A stretch of 64,000 nucleotides of DNA from Patescibacteria group bacterium (GCA_041661405.1 JBAZUL010000005.1:3164-67163); one strand, 5' to 3'. Positions 33,266 through 49,075 are shown, numbered from the stretch's first letter. The notes: a model not told the origin generated them from the sequence alone. Made by a program: numbers and translations.

Positions 33266-34294
33266 TCAAGCCTGCCGCCGGTAAGACTCATTCATAATCG
33301 CCCGATAAACTTCCCTGATCAGTTGCTCGTCCAGCTTGAATTTTTTTATTTTGTCCTTAATTATTTCCTCTTCCCTTTTTTTATCAATAACCGGCAGGCC
33401 TTTTTTTCGCTTAATCCGGCCAATGGCTTTTACTTCGGCAAAGCGGTTGCCTAAAAGTCCGAATATCCGGTTGTCAATCTTATTAATCATCCCCCGCCGA
33501 AACCCGAGCTCGTCTTTCGCTCCGGCTTTCCTAATCCGGCTATCCATTAATTCGCAGGCAATCATGAACTTAGCGCGCACGGCAGAAGCGTAGGGATTAT
33601 AATTATGCATGTCGTAGAACAACTGCCAGTTGTCCGAAGTCGTATGCGGGAGGATAGAAAGAAGATCAGTATAGCCGGGAGTAAAAATTTTCTGTTCCCG
33701 CGCTCCGGCGCCGAGTAACGCCCGGCCGACAAAATGGACTAAGCCTAAAGTATAGGCGTTTTGGCGGTCATGATCTTCGGGAGTGGTAATAATAACTTCT
33801 AGTCCCAGGCCAGTTAAAAATTTTCTCGCCATGCTGAGCCGTCGGCTATCAATCCTTATTGGGCATAAGACAATCTGCAGTCCTTTCAATTTCCAGGCTT
33901 GTTTTAAAAAATTGAATTTTGTCGTTACCGGACCGAACTGCGGATGAGTTCCCATGATTAATACATTTTCAGGCAAATATTTCTTAAGCCAGCCGCAAGG
34001 ATAAACTTTAACTGAACAGGTATCAACGATCAAAGCGCCCGGCTTTACGTCTGGCGCGATTTTTTTTATCACCTTTTCGGTCTGCGATATGGGGACAGCG
34101 AGAATTATTAAATCGCAGGCGGCCGCTTCTTTTAAGCTTACTATTCCAGCGCTGATTTTTTTCGCTTTAGCAATATCATCTTTGGAAAACCCGCTGTCAT
34201 AAACCTTAACCTGAGCCTTTCCGGAAAAAACGCTCGCGGCCAACTTTCCAAAACGGCCGAATCCGATAATAGCGACTGTTTTCTTACCGGTCAT
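33266..34294 (-). CDS. tyrA: prephenate dehydrogenase with C-terminal chorismate mutase (AroQ) domain
   Basis: The N-terminus VAIIGFGRFGK is a Rossmann motif within a PDH core. The C-terminal 90 aa (RRGMINKIDNRIFGLLGNRFAEVKAIGRIKRKKGLPVIDKKREEEI) fit the AroQ CM helix pattern. Confidence 0.85.
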   Translation of the reverse strand: MTGKKTVAIIGFGRFGKLAASVFSGKAQVKVYDSGFSKDDIAKAKKISAGIVSLKEAAACDLIILAVPISQTEKVIKKIAPDVKPGALIVDTCSVKVYPCGWLKKYLPENVLIMGTHPQFGPVTTKFNFLKQAWKLKGLQIVLCPIRIDSRRLSMARKFLTGLGLEVIITTPEDHDRQNAYTLGLVHFVGRALLGAGAREQKIFTPGYTDLLSILPHTTSDNWQLFYDMHNYNPYASAVRAKFMIACELMDSRIRKAGAKDELGFRRGMINKIDNRIFGLLGNRFAEVKAIGRIKRKKGLPVIDKKREEEIIKDKIKKFKLDEQLIREVYRAIMNESYRRQA

Positions 34295-34865
34295 AATTAT
34301 TAACCGCCGCGATAAAGGTGGTAAAATTGAATTTCAAATCCTGAATCCCCTCTTCGGAGAGTTCCAATCCGTAAAGTTCAGCGCAGATTTTCGGCGCGAT
34401 AACGGCCGTGGTTTCGGAAATCACTCCGTCGGCTAAATCTTTGGCCGCCGTTGCCGTATCCGGATATTCGTTTAACTCGGCTTCAGGCCATTTTCTTTTT
34501 AAATACATCCGGCATTGTCTTAGCGCCTGCTGGTGCGAAGTGATGGCGTCAATTTTTTTCAGATCCGCGCCTTTTTTTACGAGGAGATTCATCTTTATAT
34601 CAATCTCAAACATTTTTTCAATCTGAAAAACATGGCGAGCCATGGCGTGCACGGCTTCAATGACGATTCCGCCGTTGGAATTTTCTATGGGAAAAATGCC
34701 AATGTTAATTTTCCCCTTATCAAGCGACCGCAAAACGTTTTCCACCGAAGTAAGGTATTCCAGCTCGTAATTTTCCACCTTTTCCAAAGCGCAGTAATGT
34801 TTGGCGGCTTCTTCGGTAAAACTTCCCCGGTTCCCCGAAACGCCGATAATGATTTTTTCCGGCAT
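34284..34865 (-). CDS. pheA: prephenate dehydratase, catalytic PDT domain only (no ACT domain)
   Basis: 193 aa. IIIGVSGNRGSFTEEAA and the TSHQQALRQC region are typical of PDT. The length leaves no room for the regulatory ACT domain. Confidence 0.85.
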   Translation of the reverse strand: MPEKIIIGVSGNRGSFTEEAAKHYCALEKVENYELEYLTSVENVLRSLDKGKINIGIFPIENSNGGIVIEAVHAMARHVFQIEKMFEIDIKMNLLVKKGADLKKIDAITSHQQALRQCRMYLKRKWPEAELNEYPDTATAAKDLADGVISETTAVIAPKICAELYGLELSEEGIQDLKFNFTTFIAAVNNYDR

Positions 34866-34947: not shown

Positions 34948-34976
34948 TTGACACGTCTTTTGAAAATGTGTATTAT
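34948..34976 (+). promoter_or_regulatory. sigma70-like promoter of the aromatic supraoperon
   Basis: TTGACA (34948-34953), an exact 17-nt spacer and TATTAT (34971-34976). Confidence 0.6.
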
Positions 34977-35005: not shown

Positions 35006-35086
35006 ATGAAAATCGTCCAATTGTGGTTTAGCTACTTTTACTTTTACTTTACCCTTACTACAAGGCCGGTTTTTTGCATTAGCTAA
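35006..35086 (+). CDS. aromatic-rich leader peptide (26 aa)
   Basis: Own translation gives MKIVQLWFSYFYFYFTLTTRPVFCIS. Eight of nine consecutive codons (W7-F15) are Trp, Phe or Tyr. It is below the ORF-track cutoff. Confidence 0.7.
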   Translation: MKIVQLWFSYFYFYFTLTTRPVFCIS

Positions 35087-35184: not shown

Positions 35185-35979
35185 ATGCCAAGCAAAAAAG
35201 CACTACTGTCAAAAATCATTAACCCGCTATCCGGACGGACGGTTATTGTTCCCATGGATCACGGCGTTACCGACGGACCGATTCCGGGTCTCTTAAAAAT
35301 GGATGAGACCATTAAAAGGGTAAAGGAAGGCGGCGCTGACGCGATTATTATTCATAAAGGCATTTTTAAATTATATAAAGAAGTAATCGGCGATCTCCCG
35401 GCTCTGATCCATATTTCAGCCTCAACCGGCATGGGCGTTTCTTTAAAAAAAGTTTTAGTCGCGACCGCCAAAGAAGTTAAAAATTTAGGCGCGGCCGGAG
35501 TTTCGGTGCATCTAAATATCGGCAACCAATACGAGCCGGAAATGCTTCGCGATCTGGGGATAGTGGCGCGCGAATGCGAAGAAGAGGGTTTACCCCTGCT
35601 CGCCATGATGTACCCGAGAAACATTATTGACGGAAAAATCATCAATTATAACGACGCGGAAAAGGTCGGCCACGCCGCCCGCTTAGCCGCCGAACTGGGT
35701 GCTGATATAGTCAAAGTCCCTTACACCGGCGACGCTAAAAGTTTCGGCGAAGTGGTTCGCGGCTGTCCCATACCGGTTGTAATCGCCGGCGGAGCCAAAG
35801 GATCGGAAGAGGCAATGCTTTCTTCAATCCGGGATTGCGTCCTTGCCGGAGCGGCCGGAGTTTCAGTCGGCCGAAATGTTTTCCAATCCGAAGACGTTTC
35901 CGGCATGGTTAAAAAAGTCCGGGAAGCGGTATATGACGCCGCGGCTGTATCAGCCAACGCTAAAACATCGCGTAATTAA
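35185..35979 (+). CDS. 2-amino-3,7-dideoxy-D-threo-hept-6-ulosonate (ADH) synthase, archaeal-type AroA' (class I aldolase/DhnA family)
   Basis: 264 aa. VIVPMDHGVTDGP, IIHKG, LLAMMYPR, AARLAAELGADIVKVPYTGD, PVVIAGG and GAAGVSVGRNVFQ closely follow my recollection of M. jannaschii MJ0400. It is adjacent to aroB'. Confidence 0.8.
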   Translation: MPSKKALLSKIINPLSGRTVIVPMDHGVTDGPIPGLLKMDETIKRVKEGGADAIIIHKGIFKLYKEVIGDLPALIHISASTGMGVSLKKVLVATAKEVKNLGAAGVSVHLNIGNQYEPEMLRDLGIVARECEEEGLPLLAMMYPRNIIDGKIINYNDAEKVGHAARLAAELGADIVKVPYTGDAKSFGEVVRGCPIPVVIAGGAKGSEEAMLSSIRDCVLAGAAGVSVGRNVFQSEDVSGMVKKVREAVYDAAAVSANAKTSRN

Positions 35980-35992
35980 AATTTAAATTTTT

Positions 35993-37003
35993 ATGTCTAA
36001 AACATTCTGGTATCAGCCCCCGGTCTGGGATAAAAAACTGGTTACCGCGGCCATTGAATCGGGCTTTTCAGCAATCTACGTCCGGCCGGAAGACATAGCC
36101 CGGACTAAAGAGCTGTCTTTAGCCAAAGTCATTTCAACCGTCGCGCCAGCTGATTTTATTATCGGCGAGAATGTTGACGAAGTGATTATTAAAAACAAGG
36201 AATCAGAAAACAGGGCTGTCGCGCATCAGGGGAAAATCCCGGTTATCATCCGCAATGTTGACTGGACCATTATCCCTTTGGAAAATCTCATCTCAAAAAC
36301 TTCCAACCTGATCCAGCATGTCCGGAGTTGTGATGAAGCAAAACTGGCTTTTGAAACTCTGGAAACCGGCTGTGACGGCATACTGCTTGAAACCAGCGAC
36401 TTGAATGAAATAAAAAAAACCGCCGGCCTGATAAAAGACGCCCAAAACGAAAAGTTAAAACTTATCCAGGCTGAAATTACTTCCATAGAACAGCTCGGAT
36501 TGGGCGACCGGGTCGTTGTTGATACTTCTTCTATATTATTTCCCGGCCAGGGCATGCTTATCGGCGACTCTTCCAAAAGTATGTTTTTAGTATATAATGA
36601 AAACGTGGAGACTCCCTACTGCGATCCGCGGCCTTTCCGGGTAAACGCCGGCGGCGCCCACGCCTATATCCGCCTGCCCGGCGACAAAACCAAATATCTT
36701 GGGGAATTAAAAAGCGGCCTGAAAGCCCTTACCGTTGACCGGGAAGGCAATACCGAAGAAGTTATCATCGGCCGGGTAAAGATTGAAAAACGCCCCATGC
36801 TCATTGTCCGGGCCAAAGCCGGAGAACGGGACATGAGCCTTGTCATGCAGAACGCCGAAACCATCCGCCTAACCGGAATTGACGGACAGCCGATTTCAGT
36901 TACTAAATTAAAACCGGGCGACCGGGTGCTCGCCTTCCTGCAGGAAGAAGGCGTCGGAAGGCATTTCGGACAAAAAATTAAAGAGACAATCACTGAGAGG
37001 TAA
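35993..37003 (+). CDS. 3-dehydroquinate synthase II, archaeal-type AroB'
   Basis: 336 aa. The N-terminal W...KK.VTAAIESG pattern and the RPFRVNAGGAHAY motif are characteristic of the DHQS-II (MJ1249-like) family. Confidence 0.85.
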   Translation: MSKTFWYQPPVWDKKLVTAAIESGFSAIYVRPEDIARTKELSLAKVISTVAPADFIIGENVDEVIIKNKESENRAVAHQGKIPVIIRNVDWTIIPLENLISKTSNLIQHVRSCDEAKLAFETLETGCDGILLETSDLNEIKKTAGLIKDAQNEKLKLIQAEITSIEQLGLGDRVVVDTSSILFPGQGMLIGDSSKSMFLVYNENVETPYCDPRPFRVNAGGAHAYIRLPGDKTKYLGELKSGLKALTVDREGNTEEVIIGRVKIEKRPMLIVRAKAGERDMSLVMQNAETIRLTGIDGQPISVTKLKPGDRVLAFLQEEGVGRHFGQKIKETITER

Positions 37004-37026
37004 TACAATTTTTTTCAATAATACAT

Positions 37027-37055
37027 CGCCGCCGTTTGCTTGCTAAACGGCGGCG
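37027..37055 (+). other. perfect 11-bp GC hairpin between aroB' and ask
   Basis: CGCCGCCGTTT (37027-37037) pairs with AAACGGCGGCG (37045-37055). No U-tract follows, so a terminator role is doubtful. Confidence 0.4.
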
Positions 37056-37099
37056 AAAATGATAACTTGGAAAAATAACAGCTTCTAATTCCGTCATAT

Positions 37100-38488
37100 A
37101 TGGCAAAAAACGGAAAAATCATCGTTAATAAATTCGGCGGCGGGATCATGATTGAAAAGCATATCCCCTTTACCGATGAAAGATTAAGAGAGCAGATTAA
37201 AGCTGGCTTCCGGCCTGTTGTTGTCGTTTCGGCTTTAAAAGGCGTCACCGACCGGATCATCCATTTCCTCGCCGGACTGAAACAGGAAGTCTGCCGCAAT
37301 CAGCAAATCGGCGGCAATACCGACAAATATTCCCGCCGGCTGGTAAGCCCTTTTGTCGCCGAATTAAAGGAAGAGCATCTTAGACTTCTGGAACAAGTCG
37401 GAGTCTTAAGGGAAGAGCGGAAAAAAGCCATGGCCGACATGGATAAAATTTTCTTCCGGCTGGAAAATGATTTAAACGCCCTCCTTCATTTCGGATTCTT
37501 AAATGTTTTTGATGATAAGATCTCGGCCTATGGCGAAAAGCTGGCCGGGGTTTTTTTTACCGCCTATCTTAATTCCAAAGGCTTTACGGCCCGGACGATC
37601 ATGGCCGAAGACATTCCGATCATGACCGACGATTGTTTCCGCGACGCTAATATTGATTACAAAGTTTCGGAGAAAAACGCGAGAAAAAAAATCCTGAAAA
37701 CCGAAGGCATCCCGGTCATCCCTGGCTTTACCGGAAAAACCGCCAACGGGAATATAACAACGCTCGGCCGCGGCGGAACCGATACGACCGCCTGCTTTTT
37801 GGGAGCGGCCTTGAGGGCCGACAAGGTGATTCTTTGGAAAGACGTGGACGGCGTATTGTCCGCCGACCCGAAAATCGTTCCCTCCGCCAAAACCGTCCCT
37901 TTTATCAGCTACGCCGAAGCTGAAGAATCCGGTAAAGTCATCCATGATAAAGCTATCCAATATATAAAAATGTTTAAAACTCCGGCCGAAGTGGCGGCCA
38001 TTTCCGATCCAACGAAAAAAACTCTGGTCGGTCCGGCTAAAGATAAAAAGGAAGGCCCGAAAATCGTCAGCTTTAAAAAAGGGCTCTCGCTTCTCATTAT
38101 CACCGACGAAAAAATGAACCAACGCGGCTACCTCGCCCATGTTGCCGGGCTCCTGGCCGCCCGTAGAATAAACCTGGACACGATCAGGAATACCCGCGAT
38201 AAACTACATATTGTCGCCGAAAGCTATAACGGACCGATTGAGGAGGCGATAAAAGATTTAAAAGAAGAAATCGCCAAACTAAAAATCATTCCGGTAAATA
38301 TGGTTATTTTGATCGGCAGTCTTGACTGGAAAATGGTCAACCGCTTTAACGACGTATTAATAAAACTCTGTCCGGACGCGGAACTCGGCGCTTTTCCCTA
38401 CCGGAATTGCGTCCGGCTGGAAGCCATAGTCCGAGCCGAAGACACGGAAAAAATGGTTCGGGCTTTGCATGAGGAATTTATAAAATAA
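37100..38488 (+). CDS. ask: aspartate kinase
   Basis: 462 aa. VNKFGGGIM is a KFGG motif, GRGGTDTTA is present, and there are C-terminal ACT-like repeats. Confidence 0.9.
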   Translation: MAKNGKIIVNKFGGGIMIEKHIPFTDERLREQIKAGFRPVVVVSALKGVTDRIIHFLAGLKQEVCRNQQIGGNTDKYSRRLVSPFVAELKEEHLRLLEQVGVLREERKKAMADMDKIFFRLENDLNALLHFGFLNVFDDKISAYGEKLAGVFFTAYLNSKGFTARTIMAEDIPIMTDDCFRDANIDYKVSEKNARKKILKTEGIPVIPGFTGKTANGNITTLGRGGTDTTACFLGAALRADKVILWKDVDGVLSADPKIVPSAKTVPFISYAEAEESGKVIHDKAIQYIKMFKTPAEVAAISDPTKKTLVGPAKDKKEGPKIVSFKKGLSLLIITDEKMNQRGYLAHVAGLLAARRINLDTIRNTRDKLHIVAESYNGPIEEAIKDLKEEIAKLKIIPVNMVILIGSLDWKMVNRFNDVLIKLCPDAELGAFPYRNCVRLEAIVRAEDTEKMVRALHEEFIK

Positions 38489-38494
38489 AATTTT

Positions 38495-39583
38495 ATGAAA
38501 AAATTCAGAGTCGGCATTCTCGGCGCCACCGGCATGGTCGGCCAAAATTACATAAGACTGCTTAATGGCCACCCTTGGTTTAAAGTTACCTACGTCGCGG
38601 CATCAGCCAATTCGGCCGGAGTAACTTATTTTGATTCCATAATCGGCCGCTGGCAAATGGCGACCGCCGTCCCCAAAGATGTAAGATCTTTGGTTGTCCA
38701 GGATGTCGCTAATATTAAAGAAGCGAAAAAGCATTGCGACTTTGTTTTTTCGGCTTTTGAGATGCCGGACAAAAGCCTGGTTAAGGAAATGGAGGAAAAA
38801 TACGCGGCCGCGGGAATTCCTGTTGTGTCAAACGCCTCGGCCAACCGGTTTACCGATGACGTGCCGATGCTCATCCCGGAAATAAACCCCCATCACATAG
38901 ACATCATCCCGGTTCAGAAAAAAAACCGCGGCTGGAAAAAAGGCTTTATTGTTGTCAAACCCAACTGCAGTCTTCAAAGCTATATTACTCCGGTTTTTGC
39001 CCTCATACAGGCGGGATATCCGGTTGAAAAAATATTTATCACCACCCTGCAGGCAGTATCCGGCGCCGGCTATCCGGGCGTTCCGTCGCTTGACATGATT
39101 GGTAATGTCGTGCCTTTCATTCCGGGCGAAGAAGAAAAGACTGAAGAAGAGCCGCTAAAAATCCTTGGGGAAATAAAAGACGGAATATTCCAAAAAGCCG
39201 CCTCGCCGGCGATTTCCGCCCATTGCAACCGGGTGCCGGTGATTGACGGACATTTAGCCTGCGTCAGCCTGAAATTCGCGGAAAAAAAACCGGCTCGGGA
39301 AAAAATCCTTAAAGTCTGGAAAGAATTCAGAGCCCTGCCGCAGACCTTGAAACTGCCCATGGCGCCGGAACAGCCGATCCTCTACCGCAACGAGCATAAC
39401 CGCCCCCAGCCGAGAAAAGACCGCGACCGGGAAAAAGGCATGGCCGTTACTGTTGGGCGGCTCCGGGAATGTAAAATCTTTGATTACAAATTCGCCGCCT
39501 TAAGCCATAATACGGTTCGCGGCGCCGCCGGCGGAGGAATATTAAACGCGGAACTCTTGGTAAAGAAAGGATACATAAAATGA
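38495..39583 (+). CDS. asd: aspartate-semialdehyde dehydrogenase
   Basis: 362 aa. VGILGATGMVGQ and the active-site region KPNCSLQ are present, with a C-terminal HNTVRGAAG. Confidence 0.9.
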   Translation: MKKFRVGILGATGMVGQNYIRLLNGHPWFKVTYVAASANSAGVTYFDSIIGRWQMATAVPKDVRSLVVQDVANIKEAKKHCDFVFSAFEMPDKSLVKEMEEKYAAAGIPVVSNASANRFTDDVPMLIPEINPHHIDIIPVQKKNRGWKKGFIVVKPNCSLQSYITPVFALIQAGYPVEKIFITTLQAVSGAGYPGVPSLDMIGNVVPFIPGEEEKTEEEPLKILGEIKDGIFQKAASPAISAHCNRVPVIDGHLACVSLKFAEKKPAREKILKVWKEFRALPQTLKLPMAPEQPILYRNEHNRPQPRKDRDREKGMAVTVGRLRECKIFDYKFAALSHNTVRGAAGGGILNAELLVKKGYIK

Positions 39584-39668: not shown

Positions 39669-40967
39669 ATGTGTTCTTACCAAGTCCATATTTTAAAACG
39701 TCCAATAAAAAAAATAATAACTCTGCCCGGTTCCAAGAGTTTTACCAACCGCGCTCTCATCATGGCCGCATTGGCGGACGGGCGTTCCGCGCTAACTGGC
39801 GCCTCTCTATCGGATGACAGCCGGGCAATGATTTCTGCTTTGAAAAAGATTGGAATTAGAATTACCAATTCCGGAAAAAATATTACGGTTTACGGAGAAG
39901 GCGGCCGATTCCGGTTATTCAACGGAAAAATAAATGTTGGCGCGGCCGGAACCGCCGCCCGTTTTCTTCTCTCATTATGCGCCCTGGTTCCCGGAGAAAT
40001 TATTCTTGACGGCTCGGAGCGGATGAGGCAAAGGCCGATTAACGAACTGGTGAGCGCCCTGCGTAAAATCGGAGCAAAGATCCAGTACCAAAAAAAGGCC
40101 GGTTGTCTGCCGGTTAAAATCAGGGGCGAAAACTTAACCGGCAGAAAAGTAAAAATGCCGGGAAAAATATCAAGCCAATTTTTAACTTCCCTTCTTTTAA
40201 TCTCCCCGTTTTTAAAAAACGGGATTGAAATAAGCGTAATCGGCAGACAAATTTCCCGATCATACATTGATATGACTTTAGCCGGTTTAATGGAGCATGG
40301 AATTAAAGTAAAAAACCATAATTATAAAAAATACGAGATTAAGCCGGGCGCCCGCTATAAACCGGGAAAATACGAAATTGAAAGCGACGCTTCAGGCGCG
40401 AGTTATTTTTTCGCTTTAGCCGCTTTAACCGGCTCCGCGATCCGGGTAAAAAATATCTCTCCTGATTCATCCCAGGGCGACGTAAAATTCTGCGACTTGC
40501 TCCGAAGAATGGGATGCGAAGTTAAAAAAAACGCGCGCCAAAAATGGATTGAAGTCCGGGGGAAAAAACAATTGCGCGCTATAACCGCGGACATGGAAAA
40601 TATGCCGGACACGGCGCAGACTCTCGCCGTTGTCGCCGCCTTTGCCAAAGGTAAAACCAAAATCACCAGACTCTCCACGTTAAGGCACAAAGAAACCGAC
40701 CGGCTAATAGCTTTGAAAACCGAACTTTCTAAAATGGGCATAAAATCGCAAACCACGAAGGATTCCATAGTTATAGCAGGCGGCCAGCCGCGCGGAGCGA
40801 AAATTAAAACCTACGATGATCACCGCATGGCCATGGCTTTCGCCGTTGCCGGAGCGCGGATTCCGGATGTAATCATTGAAAACCCGGGCGTTGTTTCAAA
40901 GTCGTTTCCGGAGTTTTGGAAAATGCTGAAGAAGGCGGGCGTTAAAATAACCAATAAAAACAAATGA
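39669..40967 (+). CDS. aroA: 3-phosphoshikimate 1-carboxyvinyltransferase (EPSP synthase)
   Basis: 432 aa. LPGSKSFTNRALIMAAL, the LGNAGTA-like VGAAGTAARF, and the RHKETDR and DHRMAMAF motifs are present. Confidence 0.95.
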   Translation: MCSYQVHILKRPIKKIITLPGSKSFTNRALIMAALADGRSALTGASLSDDSRAMISALKKIGIRITNSGKNITVYGEGGRFRLFNGKINVGAAGTAARFLLSLCALVPGEIILDGSERMRQRPINELVSALRKIGAKIQYQKKAGCLPVKIRGENLTGRKVKMPGKISSQFLTSLLLISPFLKNGIEISVIGRQISRSYIDMTLAGLMEHGIKVKNHNYKKYEIKPGARYKPGKYEIESDASGASYFFALAALTGSAIRVKNISPDSSQGDVKFCDLLRRMGCEVKKNARQKWIEVRGKKQLRAITADMENMPDTAQTLAVVAAFAKGKTKITRLSTLRHKETDRLIALKTELSKMGIKSQTTKDSIVIAGGQPRGAKIKTYDDHRMAMAFAVAGARIPDVIIENPGVVSKSFPEFWKMLKKAGVKITNKNK

Positions 40968-42301
40968 ACATAGTTCTGATCGGCTTCATGGGTTCGGGAA
41001 AAACCAGCGTCGCGAAAATCCTGGCTAAAAGACTCGGGCGTGAAGCTATTGAAATGGACGATCTGATTTTAAAAAAGAGCCGGAGAAAAAGCATAAACGA
41101 AATCTTTGAAAAAGACGGCGAAAAAATGTTTAGGTCGCTGGAAGCGCGCGCGGCCAAAGAATTGTCTTTCGCGGATAATAAAATTATTTCCACGGGCGGC
41201 GGAATTGTCATGAATAAAAAAAACATGGCGAGCCTGAAAAAAAACGGCAAAATAATTTATTTAAAAGACAGCTTTGAAAGAATTAAACAAAGGCTTAAAA
41301 AAGACCAGACCCGTCCGCTCATGGTCAGCCGGGAAAAAGCCAAAACTCTTTTTCAAAAAAGACAGCCCCTGTATTCGCGATACGCCGATGAAATCATTGA
41401 CTGCGTCCGCGATTCTGATCTTAATCATATCAGCCGGGAAATCATTAAGCAATTAAAAACTGATATTAAAATAACTTGCTTAAGCATCGGCGACCCGATA
41501 AGACAATCGCTTTCGCCGGCCATGCATAACGCCGGCTACCGGGCTTTAAAAATCGATCATCTTTATATTTACCTCTCGGCCAGGGTTCGTCCCAAGGAAC
41601 TGAAAAACACCGTAAAAGCCTTTCGATCGCTTGGGATCCGCGGCGTATCAGTAACTATTCCGCACAAAATTGAGGTAATGAAATATTTGGATAAAATTGA
41701 CAAAATTGCCAAAGCTATCGGGGCGGTAAATACGATCGTGAATGACAACGGACGGTTAACCGGATATAATACCGACTGGCTCGGAGCGATAATTCCCCTG
41801 GAAAAAGCCGCCGGGAAAAAAGGTCTTAAAAATAAAAAGACGGCTATTATCGGCGCCGGGGGAGCGGCTCGGGCTATCGCCTACGGCGTTGCGAAAAAAG
41901 GCGCCAAGCTAAAAATCTTCGCCCGCGATTTGGTCAAGGCAAAAAAACTCGCCCGCGAATTTAAGGCTGAATCCGGCGATTTTTCGCGCCTCCATGAAGT
42001 AAGAAATTATGATATAATTATAAACGCCACTCCAATCGGCATGGCTCCGCGCGAAAAAGAATCGCCCGTGCCGGAAGAACTATTGCATAAAGGACAAATC
42101 GTTTTTGACGCGGTGCATACGCCTTATAAAACCAAACTTTTAACACAGGCCGAAAAAAAAGGCGCGAAAATTATTCCCGGGGTTGAAATGGTATTATGCC
42201 AGGGCGCGGCCCAGTTTGAATTATATACCGGAAAAAAAGCGCCGGTTAGCGCTATGAAAAAAGCTTTAACCGACTCGCGATTTTTACGCCACTTTTTCTA
42301 A
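40964..42301 (+). CDS. bifunctional shikimate kinase / shikimate 5-dehydrogenase (AroK-AroE fusion)
   Basis: The N-terminal 170 aa carry IVLIGFMGSGKTS and STGGG (AroK). The C-terminal 270 aa carry GDPIRQSLSPAMHNAGY, VTIPHK, GAVNT, GYNTDWLG and GAGGAARA (AroE). Confidence 0.9.
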   Translation: MNIVLIGFMGSGKTSVAKILAKRLGREAIEMDDLILKKSRRKSINEIFEKDGEKMFRSLEARAAKELSFADNKIISTGGGIVMNKKNMASLKKNGKIIYLKDSFERIKQRLKKDQTRPLMVSREKAKTLFQKRQPLYSRYADEIIDCVRDSDLNHISREIIKQLKTDIKITCLSIGDPIRQSLSPAMHNAGYRALKIDHLYIYLSARVRPKELKNTVKAFRSLGIRGVSVTIPHKIEVMKYLDKIDKIAKAIGAVNTIVNDNGRLTGYNTDWLGAIIPLEKAAGKKGLKNKKTAIIGAGGAARAIAYGVAKKGAKLKIFARDLVKAKKLAREFKAESGDFSRLHEVRNYDIIINATPIGMAPREKESPVPEELLHKGQIVFDAVHTPYKTKLLTQAEKKGAKIIPGVEMVLCQGAAQFELYTGKKAPVSAMKKALTDSRFLRHFF

Positions 42302-42335: not shown

Positions 42336-43010
42336 ATGAATCTCCGTATATGCGCGGTTGTCACCGGAAAAAACTTAAAAGAATTTCTTGCAAACCTGAA
42401 AAAAGCCCAAAAGCAAACCGATTGGGTTGAGTTAAGGGCGGATTATATAAAAAATTTCAATGTTCATGATATTGCGAAAATAAAAGCGGCGGTCAGCAAA
42501 CACGCGATATTCACCTGCCGAAAACCGGGCGAGGGAGGAAATTTCAGGAGCTCGGAAAAAGAACGGCTCGCCATCCTAAACGCCGCGCTAAAATCCGGTT
42601 TTGATTTCGTGGACATTGAACTGTCAGCCATCTCAAAAGTTAAAATTCCGGCCGCGCCAATCAGTTCCAAAATAATCTGTTCATTCCATGATTTTAATAA
42701 AACTTCGAGCCTTAGCCAGCTTAAAAAAATCGCCGAAAAAATGGAAAAAACTAAAGCTCAAGTCATTAAAATTGTCACCATGGTAAAAACCGAATCTGAC
42801 AACCAAAAACTTTTTGAACTTCTGGCCGGGAAAAAAAGCGGCATGGAAATGATTGTTTTGGGCATGGGCGAAAAAGGAAAAATCACCCGCCTTTTATCCC
42901 CGCTCAGGGGCGGCTACCTCACTTTTGCTTCAGCGAGTGTTGCCACGGCGCCTGGACAGATAAGCGTCAAAGAATTAAAATCAATATATAAAAAAATGGG
43001 ATTAAAATAA
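42336..43010 (+). CDS. aroD: type I 3-dehydroquinate dehydratase
   Basis: 224 aa. ICAVVTG...VELRADY, ...SFHDF and MVKT (Schiff-base Lys region) fit the type I DHQase pattern. Confidence 0.85.
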   Translation: MNLRICAVVTGKNLKEFLANLKKAQKQTDWVELRADYIKNFNVHDIAKIKAAVSKHAIFTCRKPGEGGNFRSSEKERLAILNAALKSGFDFVDIELSAISKVKIPAAPISSKIICSFHDFNKTSSLSQLKKIAEKMEKTKAQVIKIVTMVKTESDNQKLFELLAGKKSGMEMIVLGMGEKGKITRLLSPLRGGYLTFASASVATAPGQISVKELKSIYKKMGLK

Positions 43011-43015: not shown

Positions 43016-44089
43016 ATGAACACATTCGGAAAACTATTCACAATCACCACTTTCGGCGAATCGCACGGATTGGGCGTAGGAGTCGTTGTTGACGGCTGTC
43101 CGGCCGGTTTAAAAATCACCGAAGCTGACATCCAAAAAGAACTTAACCGGAGAAAACCGGGACAATCAAGCATTACCACCTCCCGAAAAGAAGATGATAA
43201 AATCCGGATCATGTCCGGGGTGACCGATGGAAAAACCACCGGCGCTCCGATAATGATGCTCGCGGAAAACCGCGACGCCCGATCCGAAGATTATGGCCAG
43301 CTGAAAGAAGTTTACCGGCCGGGTCACGCGGATTTTACTTATGAGGCTAAATACGGCCACCGTGAATGGCGCGGCGGCGGACGGGCTTCGGCGCGGACCA
43401 CGCTCGCGCAAGTCGCGGCTGGCGCGATCGCTAAAAAATATTTAAAAGAAAAACTTAACGTGGAAATTCTCGGCTTTGTTGACCAGGTCGGTGAAATCAA
43501 AGCCGCTATTGATTACAACAAACTGAGTTTAAAAAAAGTTGAAGCTAACCCGGTTCGCTGTCCGGATGAAAAAATTGCCAAGGAAATGATTAAATTCATT
43601 ACCGCCTTAAAATCCGGGGGCGATTCAACCGGCGGAGCTGTTTTTGCGATTATTAAAAATGTTCCTTTAGGCCTCGGCAGTCCGGTTTTTGATAAACTGC
43701 CGGCTGACTTAGCTAAGGCGATGATGGGCATTAACGCGGCCAAAGGCTTTGAAATCGGTTCGGGATTCAGGGCGGCGGAAATGCGCGGGAGCGAACATAA
43801 TGACCGGTTTTATACTACTAAAGGCAAAGTAAGAACTAAAACTAACTTTGCCGGCGGCGTTTTAGGCGGAATTTCAACGGGCGAAGACATTTATTTCCGC
43901 GTCGCTTTTAAGCCGACTTCAACGATTGCCAAAGCGCAAGACACAATAGACCGCCGCGGCAAGCAGGTTGTCCTGAAAGCCGCCGGGCGGCACGACCCCT
44001 GTATCGTCCCCCGCGCCGTCCCCATAGTAGAAGCCATGGCGGCGCTCGTGATTATGGATCATTATTTACAATGGAAGGCGTATAAATGA
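43016..44089 (+). CDS. aroC: chorismate synthase
   Basis: 357 aa with the signatures TFGESHG, RPGHADFTY, GGGRASARTT and GRHDPC. Confidence 0.95.
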   Translation: MNTFGKLFTITTFGESHGLGVGVVVDGCPAGLKITEADIQKELNRRKPGQSSITTSRKEDDKIRIMSGVTDGKTTGAPIMMLAENRDARSEDYGQLKEVYRPGHADFTYEAKYGHREWRGGGRASARTTLAQVAAGAIAKKYLKEKLNVEILGFVDQVGEIKAAIDYNKLSLKKVEANPVRCPDEKIAKEMIKFITALKSGGDSTGGAVFAIIKNVPLGLGSPVFDKLPADLAKAMMGINAAKGFEIGSGFRAAEMRGSEHNDRFYTTKGKVRTKTNFAGGVLGGISTGEDIYFRVAFKPTSTIAKAQDTIDRRGKQVVLKAAGRHDPCIVPRAVPIVEAMAALVIMDHYLQWKAYK

Positions 44090-44099: not shown

Positions 44100-44128
44100 T
44101 TGACACCAATTACCCTTTTTGCTATAAA
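44100..44128 (+). promoter_or_regulatory. sigma70-like promoter for the trp T-box leader
   Basis: TTGACA (44100-44105), a 17-nt spacer and TATAAA (44123-44128), starting 11 nt after the aroC stop. Confidence 0.6.
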
Positions 44129-44134
44129 TAAAAT

Positions 44135-44420
44135 AGAACATTTACAGAAATAATATCCACAGCCAGATCCCGGTCTTTCCGGGAATGGGTCTGGCTTTTC
44201 TCCCGCTAATCCGGGAGAAGGATGGCTTTTGCATGAGTGAAAGCCCGGCTTCCTCCGTAACCAAAGGATAACTGAATTCCACGCGGACTCGTTCTGAGCC
44301 TGCCGAAGGAGTCAGTGAAAGCGTCCCGCCCGAGGCGGGAAAAAAAGGTGGCACCGCGGGATAACCTCTCGTCCTTTTATCCAAGTATTTTATTTGGGTA
44401 AAAAGATGAGAGGTTTTTTT
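44135..44420 (+). promoter_or_regulatory. T-box riboswitch leader (presumed tRNA-Trp-responsive) with terminator
   Basis: The T-box sequence AAAGGTGGCACCGCGGGA (core at 44347-44358), AGTGAAAG elements, a stem III-like CCCGCCcgaGGCGGG, and a terminator AACCTCTC (44363-44370) / GAGAGGTT (44408-44415) plus T7, directly before trpE. Confidence 0.75.
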
Positions 44421-44439
44421 ATTGCCTAACTGCAATATT

Positions 44440-45873
44440 ATGGCTTTGCCGAAAATAACCCTAAAAAACAAAAAACCGACTTATATCAAATTCGCCGAGG
44501 ATTTAGATTTCTTCGGGCTGTTCAAAAAAATTGAACAGGAGTTTGATAATTGTTTTATCCTTGAATCTCTCGGCGACGGAGGCGACCGGGCGCGTTATCA
44601 TGTCATCGGTTTTGGACCGGAAATAATTTTATCGGCTCGCGGCCATGAATTAAAAATAACCGATTGCCATGAAAATAAGGCCAACGCCAAAAAAACAAAC
44701 ACTAAAATTAAATCAAAAACTTATCCATCTAATAACCCTTATTACGCCCTGCGGGAAATTGTTCCGCGCGACATAATCTCGCGCCAATATTCCGGCGGCC
44801 TCATCGGCTATATCGCTTACGAGGGCATGAATTATTTTGAACCGGCCATTGATTTAAAACTTCATCCTGATTTTCAACAGTTTAAATTCGGGGTTTATAC
44901 CGACGGACTCGTTTACGATAAAATGACCGGCGAAGCGTCTTATTTTTATTATGACAACGACCGCTCGGCGTTAATCAGGGAAATCGCTTTCACGAAAAAA
45001 TCCAGCACCAAAACTTCCCCCGGCGCCCGCCAAAACGGAGTTAAAGTAAAATTCATCCGGGACACAAAAACCGAAAAAGCGCACGCGGCCATGGTAAAAA
45101 GGATAAAAAAAGATATCGTGGACGGAAAAATTTTCCAGTGCGTCGCCGGGTTTAAAAGCGAATTTAAGATAAGCGGCTCGGACATTTTAATTTACGAAAG
45201 GCTCCGGGAGGTCAATCCGTCGCCGCACATGTTTTACATAAAATTCGGCCGGGAAAAAGTAATCGGCGCTTCGCCCGAGCTTTTATTCCGCTTGCGCGAA
45301 GGGGAAATGGAGACTTTTCCACTGGCCGGGACAGCGGCCCGGGGAGGCAATCTCTCCGAGGACAAAAAACTGGCCCGCCAGTTATTATCCGATCCGAAAG
45401 AAATCGCCGAGCATTCCATGCTCATAGACTTGCACAGGAACGACATCGGCCGGGTGGCTAAATTCGGGACAGTTAAAGTGAAAAACGCGATGGCCATAAA
45501 AAAATTCAGCCATGTCCAGCATATCTCTTCCGAAGTGTCCGGCGTAATCAAAGAGAGCGAGGACATGTTCTCCGCCCTGGCCGCCAATTTCCCGGCCGGC
45601 ACTCTTACTGGCGCGCCGAAAATTGAGGCCATGAAAATAATCGCCCGCGAAGAAAAGGAACCGCGCGGCCCCTACGGCGGAGCCGTCGGCCATTTCGGCT
45701 TTTCGGGCGAATGCACCTTTGCCATCCCCATCCGCACGCTTTTCATCTCCGGCAATCGCGGTTTTACCCAGACTGGCGGCGGGATTGTTTATGACTCAAA
45801 ACCGGAAAATGAGTACCGGGAAATAATAAACAAGCTTGCGGCTATGAAAAAAGTTTTAAAGGAATTTAAATAA
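44440..45873 (+). CDS. trpE: anthranilate synthase component I
   Basis: The ATG at 44440 (MALPK) is preferred over the TTG at 44422. FILESL, SPELLFR, LAGTAARG and GGAVGHFGF.G..TFAIPIRT match chorismate-binding family motifs. Confidence 0.9.
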   Translation: MALPKITLKNKKPTYIKFAEDLDFFGLFKKIEQEFDNCFILESLGDGGDRARYHVIGFGPEIILSARGHELKITDCHENKANAKKTNTKIKSKTYPSNNPYYALREIVPRDIISRQYSGGLIGYIAYEGMNYFEPAIDLKLHPDFQQFKFGVYTDGLVYDKMTGEASYFYYDNDRSALIREIAFTKKSSTKTSPGARQNGVKVKFIRDTKTEKAHAAMVKRIKKDIVDGKIFQCVAGFKSEFKISGSDILIYERLREVNPSPHMFYIKFGREKVIGASPELLFRLREGEMETFPLAGTAARGGNLSEDKKLARQLLSDPKEIAEHSMLIDLHRNDIGRVAKFGTVKVKNAMAIKKFSHVQHISSEVSGVIKESEDMFSALAANFPAGTLTGAPKIEAMKIIAREEKEPRGPYGGAVGHFGFSGECTFAIPIRTLFISGNRGFTQTGGGIVYDSKPENEYREIINKLAAMKKVLKEFK

Positions 45874-45899
45874 GCCATGAACGCGGAGCGACAATCACC

Positions 45900-46502
45900 A
45901 TGAAAATTCTAATAATTGACAACTACGACTCTTTCACCTATAACCTCCATCAGCACATCGGGGAAATTTTGGCTTCAACCGGCCGGCCTTTTGAGTTAAT
46001 CGTAAAACGCAATGACGAAATATCGGCCAAAGAAATAAAAAAAGCCGGTTTTGATAAAATTGTTATTTCTCCGGGACCGGGCGATCCGGCTGATCCGGCC
46101 TATTTCGGCGTATGCGCGGATATAATTACGGATATCGGAAAGAAGACGCCGGTCTTAGGGGTTTGCCTCGGCATGCAGGGCATCGCCCATTATTTTGGCG
46201 GAAAAGTCGTTAAAGCCGGATTGCCTATGCACGGAAAAACCAGTAAAATTAAGCATAATGGAAAAGGGTTATTTAAAAACCTCCCCGAGAACCTGGAAGT
46301 CATGCGCTACCACTCACTTATTGCCGAAGAATCAACACTGCCCGATTGCCTTGAAATTACCGCACGGACGGCTGACACAGGAGAAATCATGGGGCTCGCG
46401 CATAAAAAATATCCAATAGCCGGCATCCAATTCCATCCCGAATCGTTCGCAACCGAGGGAGGAAAAATATTATTAAAGAATTTTCTTTTCAAGAGCCAAT
46501 AA
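45900..46502 (+). CDS. trpG: anthranilate synthase component II (glutamine amidotransferase)
   Basis: 200 aa. MKILIIDNYDSFTYNL, GVCLGMQ (catalytic Cys) and QFHPES. Confidence 0.9.
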   Translation: MKILIIDNYDSFTYNLHQHIGEILASTGRPFELIVKRNDEISAKEIKKAGFDKIVISPGPGDPADPAYFGVCADIITDIGKKTPVLGVCLGMQGIAHYFGGKVVKAGLPMHGKTSKIKHNGKGLFKNLPENLEVMRYHSLIAEESTLPDCLEITARTADTGEIMGLAHKKYPIAGIQFHPESFATEGGKILLKNFLFKSQ

Positions 46503-46503
46503 T

Positions 46504-47544
46504 ATGATTAACCAGCTAATTGAAAAACTGAAAAGTAAAAACGGCCTTGATAAAGAAGAAGCTTATGCTCTGCAAAACGAGATTATCGGCGGTAAAACCG
46601 GCAAGGAAAAAATAATCAAAATTTTTCAACTTTTGGATGAAAAAGGCCTTTCCGAGGAAGAACTGTCGGGAATCCTCGCGGCTACCCGAGACAATATGAT
46701 CCGGGTAAACATAAATTTTGACTGCCTGGATAACTGTGGCACCGGCGGCGACGGTTTTAATACTTTTAACATTTCCACAGTTTCAGCCGTCGTTCTGGCC
46801 GCCGCCGGCATTCCGGTCGCGAAGCACGGCAACCGGGCGGCGACGAGCAAATGCGGCTCGGCTGATGTCCTTGAAAAACTCGGAATAAAAATTAACCTTA
46901 ACGCAGGGCAGGCGAAAATCTGCCTGGAAAAATCCGGCATAGTATTTATGTTCGCCCCGAATTTTCACCCGGCTTTAAAGTTTGTCAAAGAAGCGCGGTC
47001 AGAATATGGCAAAAAAACCTACTTTAATATCCTCGGGCCGATGCTAAATCCGGCCGGCGCCTCGCATCAGCTTATCGGAGTGGCTGACGCCGGAAAAATA
47101 AATTTGATTGGCAAAGCGCTTATCGCCGCCGGATCAAAAAGAGCGATAATCGTCCGCGGCGAAGAAGGATTGGATGAGATTAGCGTTGAAAATGATACGC
47201 TGATCAGCGATTTTAAAGCTGGTCCTGAATTAAATAGCGCGTCCGCTTTTGAGTTCAACCAATATAAAATTAACCCCTCCGATTTCGGCCTGAACGCCCA
47301 TAAACTGGAAGAAATTAAAGGAGGAGACGCTGATGAAAGCGCGAAAATATTTTTAGATATTTTAAAAAATAAAGCTACGGAAGACCAAACTGACGCCGTG
47401 CTGTTAAACGCTTCCGCCGGTATGCTCGCGTTCGGCCGGGTAAAAGATTTAAAGGAAGGAATCGGGCTGGCCAGGGAAATAATCACTTCGGGCAAAGCCT
47501 TGAGAAAACTGGAAAAATTCATAAAAACATCAAACAGCTTATGA
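46504..47544 (+). CDS. trpD: anthranilate phosphoribosyltransferase
   Basis: 346 aa. CGTGGDGFNTFNIST, KHGNRA.TSK.GSADVLE and NILGPMLNP. Confidence 0.9.
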   Translation: MINQLIEKLKSKNGLDKEEAYALQNEIIGGKTGKEKIIKIFQLLDEKGLSEEELSGILAATRDNMIRVNINFDCLDNCGTGGDGFNTFNISTVSAVVLAAAGIPVAKHGNRAATSKCGSADVLEKLGIKINLNAGQAKICLEKSGIVFMFAPNFHPALKFVKEARSEYGKKTYFNILGPMLNPAGASHQLIGVADAGKINLIGKALIAAGSKRAIIVRGEEGLDEISVENDTLISDFKAGPELNSASAFEFNQYKINPSDFGLNAHKLEEIKGGDADESAKIFLDILKNKATEDQTDAVLLNASAGMLAFGRVKDLKEGIGLAREIITSGKALRKLEKFIKTSNSL

Positions 47545-48341
47545 ATACAACCTACCGAAAAACCAAAACGATTTTAGATAAAATCTGCGATAACAAAGTT
47601 TTGGAAGTGGAAAAAAGGATGAACGCGGACACCCTTGAGGTTCTTAAAGAAAAAATTAAAACTAATGGTTTTGAAAAACGGGATTTTTACGCGGCGCTTG
47701 CCAATCCCGGCCTTTCGCTGATTGCTGAAATTAAATTTTCCTCCCCTTCGGCCGAAGGCCGGATTTTTAGCTCCGTTAAACCGGAAGAAATAGTAAAAAC
47801 TTACGAAAAACACGGAGCCAGGGCAATATCCGTTTTAACCGATGAAAAATTTTTTCTTGGCAAGCTTGAATTTATTTCCCGGGTCAGGGCGGCCTGCAAC
47901 CTGCCGATTCTAAGGAAAGATTTTATCATTCATCCTTACCAGCTTTACGAGGCCAAAGCTTGCGGCGCCGACGCGGTTCTTTTGATAGCCTCAATCCTGG
48001 AAAAAGCGCGATTAAAGGAACTATATAGTCTGGCCGGCGAATTAGGATTGGATGTATTAATGGAAATCCATGACGCGCATGAACTTAAAACAGCTCTGGA
48101 ACGCGCCCCAAAAATAATCGGCATCAATAACCGGGATTTAAAAACCATGAAAATAGATTTAAATACATTTTCCCGATTATCAAAGCTTATTCCGGCGAAC
48201 ATAATCAAAGTCGCTGAATCCGGAATTAAAACCCGCGAAAACGCTGAACAAATGAGAAAATCCGGAGCCGATGCCATCCTTGTCGGCGCAACGCTCATGC
48301 AAGCGAAAGACATCGGAAAAATGATTGACACGCTAATATGA
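47541..48341 (+). CDS. trpC: indole-3-glycerol phosphate synthase
   Basis: 266 aa. IAEIKFSSPS, ISVLTDEKFF.G, LRKDFI and INNRDL.T motifs. It overlaps trpD by 4 nt. Confidence 0.9.
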   Translation: MNTTYRKTKTILDKICDNKVLEVEKRMNADTLEVLKEKIKTNGFEKRDFYAALANPGLSLIAEIKFSSPSAEGRIFSSVKPEEIVKTYEKHGARAISVLTDEKFFLGKLEFISRVRAACNLPILRKDFIIHPYQLYEAKACGADAVLLIASILEKARLKELYSLAGELGLDVLMEIHDAHELKTALERAPKIIGINNRDLKTMKIDLNTFSRLSKLIPANIIKVAESGIKTRENAEQMRKSGADAILVGATLMQAKDIGKMIDTLI

Positions 48342-49075
48342 AAATCAAGTTCTGCGGAATAACCAATATAGAAGACGCGAAAAACGCCATTAATCTGGGT
48401 GCTGATTATCTTGGGTTTATTATTGATTTTCCTCAAAGCCCGAGAAGCATAACCCTAGAACAGTTTATGGCATTATCCGCAAAAGTACAAAATTGCGACT
48501 CTGGAATACTGTCTGAGGCTAACCAGATTCCAAATTCCCAGCCTCGCCGGCAGGCAGGCAAATTCCAAATTCCAAAAATCGTTGCCGTCACTGTCGACAT
48601 GGCTGAAAACAAACTAAATAAATTTCTTGACTCTAACCTGATAGACATTCTCCAGTTTCATGGCAATGAAACCCCGGAATTATGCGGACGTTTTAAAAAC
48701 AGGGCGGAAGTTTGGCGATTATTTAAAATCAGTCCTGACGATAATTTAGAAAAAACTATATCGGATCTTAAAAGATTTAAAGGAAAAATTGACCGGTTTT
48801 TAATTGACTCCGCGAGCGCTGACGATAAAGCCAAAGGCGCGGCTAAAAAATTTGATAATTTTTCCCTGTTCAAAAATTTTGAACAGGCGGGTTATCCTCT
48901 TGTACTCGCTGGCGGAATCAACCCGGATAATGTAAAATTATATATAGAAAAATTAAACCCGGAAATAATTGATGTTGCGAGCGGAATTGAAGATCGCCCG
49001 GGGAAAAAAAGTTTAAAAAAAATGAAAGAATTAATTAAAATAGTAAATAAATACAACCGTAAAAAAGCTAATTAA
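48338..49075 (+). CDS. trpF: phosphoribosylanthranilate isomerase carrying an in-frame insertion of about 29 aa
   Basis: MKIKFCGIT, GADYLGFI...SPR, LQFHGNE, LAGGINPDNV and DVASGIE are present. The insert QNCDSGILSEANQIPNSQPRRQAGKFQIP (48488-48574) has no counterpart in canonical PRAI as I recall it. Confidence 0.85.
   Translation: MKIKFCGITNIEDAKNAINLGADYLGFIIDFPQSPRSITLEQFMALSAKVQNCDSGILSEANQIPNSQPRRQAGKFQIPKIVAVTVDMAENKLNKFLDSNLIDILQFHGNETPELCGRFKNRAEVWRLFKISPDDNLEKTISDLKRFKGKIDRFLIDSASADDKAKGAAKKFDNFSLFKNFEQAGYPLVLAGGINPDNVKLYIEKLNPEIIDVASGIEDRPGKKSLKKMKELIKIVNKYNRKKAN
48488..48574. repeat. word-array plus GC-hairpin repeat element inserted in-frame in trpF
   Basis: ATTCCAAATTCC (48527-48538) and AATTCCAAATTCC (48561-48573) flank GCCTCGCCggcaGGCAGGC. 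The motif GGCAGGCAA(A/T)TTCCAA(A)TTCC also occurs at 21929-21948 in the rplU leader. Confidence 0.7.

Follow-up and report, generated by a model that had tools for sequence, protein, structure and literature searches.

An aromatic operon of Patescibacteria with a probable aspartate-semialdehyde entry to 3-dehydroquinate and its own precursor-supply genes

An entry to the shikimate pathway from L-aspartate semialdehyde (ASA) and DKFP (6-deoxy-5-ketofructose 1-phosphate) was reportedly found in Methanocaldococcus jannaschii by White in 2004. The only enzymatically characterised pair is MJ0400 (AroA') and MJ1249 (AroB'), which form dehydroquinate from ASA and DKFP with NAD (PMC4162585); the entry thus rests on a single in vitro reconstitution, and a haloarchaeal homologue failed in the same assay. 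A similar pair, GriI and GriH of Streptomyces, consists of a DhnA-type aldolase and a cyclase of the 3-dehydroquinate synthase II (DHQS-II) family, and also builds a six-membered ring from ASA (PMC10179220), although its product is a secondary-metabolite precursor and not dehydroquinate. The locus considered here is an aromatic operon contained in a stretch of 64,000 nucleotides (the window) of a Patescibacteria group bacterium (GCA_041661405.1, JBAZUL010000005.1:3164-67163). As in the M. jannaschii route, the same two families are followed by canonical aroD, aroE, aroK, aroA and aroC functions, with neither 3-deoxy-D-arabino-heptulosonate 7-phosphate (DAHP) synthase nor AroB in the cluster. 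Unlike that route, the host belongs to the candidate phyla radiation (CPR), the operon includes the aspartate kinase and aspartate-semialdehyde dehydrogenase genes (ask and asd), and control by a leader-peptide attenuator is predicted. The operon probably makes 3-dehydroquinate via the ASA route, with its own precursor supply. Both enzyme families, the ASA route and its bacterial occurrence are known already, every enzyme is of a known kind, and no new chemistry is demonstrated. The genes of the operon are these:

35185..35979, + strand: 2-amino-3,7-dideoxy-D-threo-hept-6-ulosonate (ADH) synthase, AroA', 264 aa, a DeoC/LacD-family class I aldolase (NF005556)
35993..37003, + strand: DHQS-II, AroB' (PF01959, NF002627)
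37026..37056, strand unspecified: GC-rich hairpin of 12 bp, not followed by a T-run, in the 96 nt that separate aroB' from ask
37100..38488, + strand: aspartate kinase (Ask) of a Patescibacteria-wide clade (AA_kinase 128 bits, TIGR00657)
38495..39583, + strand: aspartate-semialdehyde dehydrogenase (Asd), archaeal/fungal type (TIGR00978)
39669..40967, + strand: 5-enolpyruvylshikimate 3-phosphate synthase, aroA (TIGR01356, 445.8 bits)
40964..42301, + strand: aroK-aroE fusion, shikimate kinase plus shikimate dehydrogenase (Pfam SKI, Shikimate_dh_N and SDH_C)
42336..43010, + strand: type I 3-dehydroquinate dehydratase, aroD (PF01487, 195.6 bits)
43016..44089, + strand: chorismate synthase, aroC (PF01264, 470 bits)

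The initial annotation had the operon opening with ADH synthase and DHQS-II, with ask and asd exactly between aroB' and aroA. Both points were borne out, the first by family models passed on the + strand and the second by the coordinates of the open reading frames (ORFs), which form an unbroken series; AroB' starts 14 nt past the end of AroA'. AroA' scored 289.6 bits with the ADH-synthase subfamily model NF005556 (cut-off 241), while AroB' scored 373.5 bits with PF01959 (cut-off 22.2) and 400.7 bits with NF002627 (cut-off 392). When AroA' was compared by phmmer to the PDB, the scores were 245.8 bits for MJ0400, 119.7 for the fructose-bisphosphate (FBP) aldolase of T. tenax and 110.2 for LsrF, with identities of 51.7% to MJ0400 and 33.0% to the T. 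tenax enzyme. A small neighbour-joining tree placed AroA' and every DHQS-II-adjacent homologue in a cluster with MJ0400, far from FBP aldolase. The checks by hidden Markov models and by tree therefore group the aldolase with ADH synthases of the MJ0400 type, and not with FBP aldolase or LsrF, the grouping that the initial annotation had named among the findings that would refute it. The initial label "archaeal-type" stands as far as the family is concerned, but it is only historical, the AroA'/AroB' pair being widespread in bacteria (at least 577 confirmed stretches). The proteins of the window correspond to GenBank MFA6106498 to MFA6106533, labelled as from a metagenome-assembled genome (MAG) of a Patescibacteria group bacterium and located on a contig of 80,372 bp; the NCBI labels are already right for ADH synthase, aspartate kinase and Asd, and the DHQS-II name comes from close homologues.

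Two other identities were considered for the pair, namely a 3-amino-4-hydroxybenzoate synthase of the GriI/GriH type, or a plain class I FBP aldolase next to an unrelated DHQS-II paralogue. Residues D25, Y143 and K177 of AroA' align with D33, Y153 and K184 of MJ0400, which are reported by Morar et al. 2007 to be catalytic (Asp33, Tyr153 and the Schiff-base Lys184). They are common to the whole DhnA family, and so they point to catalytic competence, not to specificity. Likewise, GriI/GriH homologues use ASA and dihydroxyacetone phosphate, so that the ASA linkage alone cannot separate the chemistries (PMC10179220). The models do separate them: AroA' and AroB' pass those for ADH synthase and DHQS-II, whereas the scores were far below cut-off for BagB/FevI (NF041223, 171.7 versus 500), BagC/FevH (NF041224, 157.2 versus 750), the archaeal FBP aldolase (NF040816, 140.7 bits versus 430) and the LsrF thiolase (NF006081, 142.8 bits versus 297). 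Besides, AroA' clusters with MJ0400, the operon encodes all of the later shikimate steps but no second source of dehydroquinate, and it is preceded by a leader with Phe, Tyr and Trp codons that is predicted to control it. Either of the two identities is thus highly improbable.

All seven steps to chorismate are encoded without DAHP synthase or classical AroB. With DHQS-II next to AroA' and all later shikimate functions encoded in the operon, these two enzymes are not needed. In agreement with the initial annotation, neither of them was seen among the scanned window ORFs of at least 150 aa or in the flanking contig sequence that was read (about 4 kb on the left and 6 kb on the right), and the same holds for a second DhnA-type aldolase. 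In the proposed pathway, Ask would phosphorylate aspartate and Asd would reduce the product to ASA. AroA' would join ASA to a three-carbon keto fragment whose source is DKFP or another keto-sugar phosphate like it, and AroB' would oxidatively deaminate and cyclise the resulting compound to dehydroquinate. AroD, AroE, AroK, AroA and AroC, encoded in one transcription unit, would then take dehydroquinate to chorismate.

The conservation of this arrangement was studied in two scans. A DHQS-II alignment run against the species representatives of GTDB yielded the confirmed stretches mentioned above, of which the best 80 loci were examined, and an Ask alignment run against metagenomes added loci L085-L088, L113, L146, L151, L153, L162 and L163. 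The order AroA'-AroB'-Ask-Asd was found in at least 12 distinct Patescibacteria loci, the four genes being in this order in L002, L003 (Paceibacterota), L004, L005 (Roizmanbacteria), L048/L087, L085/L086, L088, L113, L146 and L151. Two further patterns were seen: in L153, dapA, a gene for LL-diaminopimelate (LL-DAP) aminotransferase and a lysA-like gene are inserted between AroB' and Ask, and in L162 and L163, which lack long ORFs when translated by table 11 and make better sense with code 25, AroA'-AroB'-Ask is present and Asd was undetected. The recurrence of the same gene order across loci means that the linkage is not due to chance. Among the best 80 loci, Ask and Asd follow AroB' in the clade of the window only (L002-L005 and L048). 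No asd was nearby in any of the 74 non-Patescibacteria or unassigned loci, and an aspartokinase-like gene was present in L036 alone, the module of four genes being essentially confined to Patescibacteria. The AroA'-AroB' pair itself is common, among those 80 loci, in Desulfobacterota, Spirochaetota, Nitrospirota, Armatimonadota and archaea. As in the window, the aldolase adjoins DHQS-II in most of the bacterial loci, often followed by pheA, aroD, aroE and aroA, while in Aquificota AroB' is mostly without an adjacent AroA'. Neither ask nor asd was nearby in any of the four archaeal loci examined.

Three deviations from the common pattern argue for selection on the linkage itself. In L005 (Ca. 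Roizmanbacteria), directly after AroB', there is an Ask-Asd fusion of 678 aa with an ACT-less kinase domain. In L002, the Asd slot is occupied by a bacterial-type asd_B (376 bits) and the linkage is kept. In L036, an Armatimonadia MAG, an unrelated aspartokinase-like ORF of 288 aa (11028-11894), canonical bacterial in type and lacking ACT, comes right after AroA'-AroB' and looks like an independent recruitment of ASA supply.

A module hidden by genetic code 25 was also sought in loci labelled as Gracilibacteria or Peregrinibacteria. In L006-L010, L012 and L019, no AroA', Ask, Asd or other aro genes were found within flanks of up to 10 kb, even with code 25, and the DHQS-II homologues (50-57% identical) stand alone; the idea was rejected for L006-L012 and L019, while L162 and L163 do show AroA'-AroB'-Ask. 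As a separate observation, an ORF of 798 aa with no Pfam domain lies between ask and asd in L004 (12601-14997, on a 547-kb contig) and had no homologue in the other fetched loci.

Some observations weigh against the ASA/DKFP entry proposed for the operon. We know of no biochemistry on record for bacterial members of AroA'/AroB'. AroA' missed narrowly the equivalog model TIGR01949 (289.4 versus a cut-off of 299.45). No DKFP-forming candidate was seen in the window, as the initial annotation had said, or in the contig flanks that were read, and none is conserved among the aro-linked loci; no second DhnA-type aldolase was present in the window or in any CPR locus; and no uncharacterised ORF was common to the aro-linked loci, the 798-aa ORF of L004 and the unknown ORFs of L151 and L153 being singletons. 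Moreover, the AroA' homologue of Halobacterium salinarum had FBP-aldolase activity and no transaldolase activity on ASA plus DKFP in vitro; the authors considered fructose 1,6-bisphosphate (F-1,6-P) as a possible precursor, and in this organism there was no co-regulation of the ASA genes and the pathway (PMC4162585). Given this result, the keto donor may differ between lineages. It is conceivable, though rather doubtful, that the ASA route holds while the second substrate of AroA' is F-1,6-P, fructose 1-phosphate or another donor instead of DKFP, so that no DKFP-forming enzyme would be needed. The cleavage of F-1,6-P by the H. salinarum enzyme and the failure to find a DKFP-forming gene are in line with this, as is the fact that Patescibacteria genomes are small, with few spare enzymes. 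On the other hand, MJ0400 and MJ1249 do work with ASA and DKFP, and the AroA' of the window is more than half identical to MJ0400. In addition, DKFP could come from methylglyoxal and a hexose phosphate by means of a housekeeping aldolase encoded elsewhere, an origin of DKFP reportedly described by White and Xu in 2006.

With regard to the supply of ASA, the contexts of ask and asd outside aromatic operons are informative. In 82 loci of the Ask clade, asd follows ask in 68. AroA'/AroB' is directly upstream of ask-asd in 10 loci; a carboxynorspermidine-synthase-like gene and nspC are adjacent and divergent in 53, often with agmatinase and an arginine-decarboxylase-like gene; only the arginine-decarboxylase side is seen in 5; and the remaining 14 display neither context, 13 of them being on short contigs (about 1.3-4.2 kb). 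The nspC product of the polyamine-linked loci scored 480 bits (cut-off 409). This conserved Paceibacteria-type cluster (L082-L084 and 50 further loci; for instance L082 4372-13570) comprises agmatinase, nspC, the carboxynorspermidine-synthase-like gene and divergent ask-asd, with the arginine-decarboxylase-like gene beyond, and its gene content implies that many CPR genomes would make spermidine via carboxyspermidine. Carboxyspermidine dehydrogenase (CASDH) takes ASA as aminopropyl donor (PMC10413350). The polyamine-linked pairs resemble those of the aromatic operons in having an Ask of the same clade and a close Asd, and in placing ASA supply beside an ASA consumer; they differ in that the consumer is polyamine synthesis and in being divergent from it, whereas the aro-linked arrangement is co-directional. 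Read most simply, ask-asd is a cassette for ASA supply that stays beside ASA consumers. It would be a two-gene cassette native to Patescibacteria, located by whichever pathway consumes ASA: AroA'/AroB' here, carboxyspermidine dehydrogenase/decarboxylase in most relatives, and also dapA, dapL and lysA in one locus.

The presence of the cassette next to aromatic, polyamine or lysine consumers supports the interpretation, already advanced in the initial annotation, that the gene order encodes a substrate supply line, and so do the conserved order, the L005 fusion and the non-orthologous Asd of L002. Two facts count on the opposite side. In L144, ask-asd is amid housekeeping genes with no ASA consumer nearby; this is the sole exception on a long contig, at which the prediction that every ask-asd pair has an adjoining ASA consumer fails. 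In addition, the window contains threonine synthase (thrC) and a possible homoserine kinase, the latter a weak match, 5-6 kb upstream of the operon, and hence ASA may also feed threonine synthesis, in which case the cassette would not serve aromatics alone. Both facts would suit the view that ask and asd are general housekeeping genes (for Thr, Lys, DAP and polyamines) that came to be in the aro operon through packing of the amino-acid-biosynthesis island of about 40 kb that surrounds it (about 24.1-64 kb), without any special tie to AroA'; the promoter-like site that follows the attenuator (see below) would suit it too. However, the four-gene order is kept in loci with differing flanks, including L002, L005, L113, L146 and L151, which have no island. 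The fusion of Ask to Asd right after AroB', the other Asd type in the same slot and the independently recruited aspartokinase of L036 are also hard to reconcile with mere packing, and where the cassette is elsewhere, it adjoins CASDH/nspC, again an ASA consumer. A purely housekeeping role is therefore unlikely. In regard to the coupling of ask-asd with AroA'/AroB', "dedicated" is too strong a word, and "co-supplied and co-regulated" fits the data.

Concerning the two supply enzymes themselves, Ask passed TIGR00657 (220.2 bits, cut-off 208.7) and did not reach the equivalog TIGR00656 (230.9 versus 402). It is divergent, its best PDB match being the aspartate kinase of M. jannaschii with 106 bits, and its ACT region gives a weak Pfam ACT score (20.5 bits, gathering score 27). 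The named homologues among the best 120 listed belong almost all to Patescibacteria lineages. Asd scored 385.2 bits with TIGR00978 (cut-off 301.2) and 298.7 bits with PDB 1ys4, which we take to be the M. jannaschii entry for this dehydrogenase, the other structures matched being presumably fungal. Its alignment contains the Cys of a PNC motif and the His of an SHNT motif, the catalytic residues. With polyamine-linked Asds, that of the window shares about 70% identity (62-74%), as compared to 40-48% with most other aro-linked Asds and 59% with that of L003. The Asks of polyamine-linked loci are 44-58% identical to that of the window and belong to the same clade. In keeping with the Asd identities, in a neighbour-joining tree of Ask, which carries no support values, the aro-linked Asks are basal and the polyamine-linked ones form one derived clade, sister to the group of the window.

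The operon is preceded by a region in which control elements can be recognised. In enterobacteria, the pheA, pheST and trp operons are controlled by leader-peptide transcription attenuators, in which a short ORF with a run of aromatic codons, two hairpins that exclude each other (antiterminator and terminator) and a T-run precede the biosynthetic genes. The same components are found here:

34948..34976, + strand: strong promoter-like site, TTGACA-17 nt-TATTAT, matching at 11 of 12 positions and lying some 30 nt upstream of the leader ORF
35006..35086, + strand: leader peptide ORF MKIVQLWFSYFYFYFTLTTRPVFCIS, 26 codons, starting MKIVQLWFSYFYFYF
35064-35069, + strand: attenuator region 1, GGCCGG, inside the leader ORF
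35110-35117, + strand: attenuator region 2, CCCGGCCC, able to pair with region 1 or region 3
35125-35130, + strand: attenuator region 3, GGCCGG, followed by T6
35135-35163, strand unspecified: second promoter-like site, TTGTTA-17 nt-TATAAT, after the attenuator terminator

The leader ORF contains eight aromatic residues in a run of nine (WFSYFYFYF), and among 778 small ATG ORFs in the window it is alone in exceeding five aromatics per nine-residue stretch. Regions 2 and 3 form an intrinsic terminator (35111-35136; -12.0 kcal/mol by ViennaRNA), and regions 1 and 2 an alternative antiterminator (-12.6 kcal/mol by the same program). Region 1 comes 14 nt after the end of the last aromatic codon and 15 nt before the stop codon, a geometry by which a stalled ribosome would leave region 1 free and a terminating ribosome would cover it. 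So, under a shortage of charged Phe-, Tyr- or Trp-tRNA, ribosomes would stall in the aromatic run and region 1 would become free to pair with region 2, blocking the terminator. The design differs from the enterobacterial ones in the mixture of Trp, Phe and Tyr codons, in having three regions and in its Patescibacteria host; the mixed run suits an operon for the common pathway. No riboswitch or T-box was found before the aro operon with Rfam at gathering thresholds, and the control element there is a predicted leader-peptide attenuator, not a T-box.

Leader ORFs with aromatic runs precede AroA' in nine further locus groups; they were seen in L048/L087, L085, L088, L004, L005 (two in tandem), L113, L151 and L153, and less clearly in the very AT-rich L002. 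A hairpin plus T-run occurs in the window, L048/L087, L085, L088 and L005, and was also read from the sequence in L002 and L004. Against attenuation it must be said that the stems are identical in L048, L085 and L088, where only the loops vary, so that there is conservation without covariation or compensatory changes. The whole leader folds no better than shuffled sequence (z = -0.03); this fold is uninformative, and only the local alternative hairpins inform. Furthermore, the promoter-like site at 35135-35163 or the hairpin at 37026-37056 could allow expression of ask-asd, or of the whole operon, independently of attenuation. The initial annotation had put all the genes under aromatic attenuation. 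This can be maintained for the aro genes, with the qualification that a promoter-like site also follows the attenuator, but not for the trp genes, which have a promoter-like site of their own and a Trp T-box-like leader:

44100..44420, + strand: trp control region, with TTGACA at 44100-05 and TATAAA at 44123-28 (read by eye)
44160-44196, + strand: short stem I of a T-box-like leader, with UGG at 44186-88, followed by the T-box motif and a terminator at 44365-44420
44422..51146, + strand: trpE, trpG, trpD, trpC, trpF, trpB and trpA

The T-box-like leader does not reach the gathering score of Rfam RF00230, having 45.1 bits (E 5.7e-9) as opposed to 93. It is also present in L087 (17690-17843) and L088 (17835-17988), and in the alignment of the three sequences the UGG, in a bulge of stem I, is invariant and flanking stem positions covary. 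The leader of trpE may be a reduced variant of the Trp T-box in Patescibacteria, with a shortened stem I. Among the trp genes, trpE, trpG and trpD were assigned by Pfam/NCBIfam models, trpA and trpB on the basis of Trp_syntA and PALP called on the same contig, and trpC and trpF by position and ORF length alone; for trpE, an in-frame ATG at 44440 is the likely start.

Two further aromatic genes are upstream of the aro operon and divergent from it:

33266..34294, - strand: tyrA-CM, prephenate dehydrogenase fused to chorismate mutase (Pfam PDH_N and CM_2; NCBIfam models)
34284..34865, - strand: prephenate dehydratase, catalytic domain only, 193 aa (Pfam PDT, 151 bits)

The prephenate dehydratase is without an ACT domain (NF008865 aligned at its positions 4-181 of 284), and the same lack is seen in the Ask-Asd fusion of L005. 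In these genomes, allosteric feedback seems to be replaced by the predicted transcriptional attenuation.

As to the host, the window also contains pheS, pheT, dnaB, recR and tRNAs. PheS, PheT and DnaB are exact sequences of NCBI MAG proteins labelled Patescibacteria, and the best named matches of PheS are from Patescibacteria, Kuenenbacteria, Falkowbacteria and Parcubacteria, besides two labelled only "bacterium". The presence on the same contig of housekeeping genes with CPR relatives indicates that the operon is native to a CPR chromosome and is not a binning artefact.

In the open-access literature, which makes this weak evidence, no description was found of a conserved AroA'-AroB'-Ask-Asd module, of an Ask-Asd fusion, of such a cassette attached to polyamine or lysine genes, of an aromatic leader-peptide attenuator or any of these features in Patescibacteria, nor anything relevant on CPR aromatic biosynthesis or CPR carboxyspermidine genes; the route is not discussed in the main text of Price et al. 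2018 or GapMind. CPR bacteria are generally described as amino-acid auxotrophs. A tentative joint reading of the data, not to be regarded as the likeliest, is that the ASA cassette stands outside the classical aspartate network and had AroA'/AroB' as its first partner, that the spermidine-linked version is derived, that the biosynthetic lineages contradict CPR auxotrophy, and that the source of DKFP or the keto donor can be found by profiling. If this is true, the cassette would be portable, and the spermidine-linked version that predominates in Paceibacteria would descend from an aro-linked one. The aro-linked lineages, having aromatic genes along with Ser, Thr and branched-chain ones on the contig, would contradict the picture of CPR bacteria as auxotrophs, and the tiny genomes of the clade would permit phylogenetic profiling to reveal how DKFP arises or which keto donor bacterial AroA' really uses.

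Apart from that joint reading, ASA genes that are conserved, fused, displaced or independently recruited beside AroA'/AroB' would constitute independent evidence, from genomes, for ASA as the physiological substrate of these enzymes in bacteria. Minimal genomes appear to put precursor-supply genes beside the consuming pathway, with one cassette serving aromatic, polyamine or lysine synthesis. The complete, regulated gene sets for aromatic compounds, tryptophan and branched-chain amino acids in some CPR bacteria bear on their dependence on hosts, and such small genomes are a good place to seek the DKFP-forming step.

The operon is part of the island referred to above, whose size is unusual for a group described as auxotrophic. 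Its main contents and some of its less usual genes are the following:

about 24100-64000: island with serB/C/A, a cysK-like gene, thrC, tyrA-CM, pheA, aro, trp, ilvC/B/D/E, leuB, fused leuCD and leuA
28962-29651, - strand: P-loop kinase (AAA_33) adjoining thrC, kept in L048 and L087
31022-31435, - strand: stand-alone LeuA_dimer/citramalate-synthase C-terminal domain, 137 aa, kept in L048, L087 and L088
31436-33265: about 1.8 kb with short ORFs only
57558-59408, - strand: threonine-synthase-family pyridoxal-phosphate enzyme (NF006050, 311 bits) fused to a C-terminal LeuA_dimer allosteric domain
window 40964-42301 and 60795-62747, L003 4477-6372 and 6814-9180: fused biosynthetic genes

The kinase at 28962-29651 gave 41.9 bits with the model for the shikimate-kinase-like homoserine kinase of the Desulfovibrio type (cut-off 197), a weak score, and may be a non-canonical ThrB. 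The segment 31436-33265 might represent the remains of a gene or else an element not yet recognised; a decayed homoserine dehydrogenase was considered for it and rejected, the fragmentary ORFs scanned having no Pfam matches. The gene at 57558-59408 is inside the ilv/leu cluster, at the place expected for threonine dehydratase. Finally, fused enzymes are frequent in these loci, as illustrated by aroK-aroE, leuC-leuD and, in L003, an aroA-aroC fusion of 788 aa.

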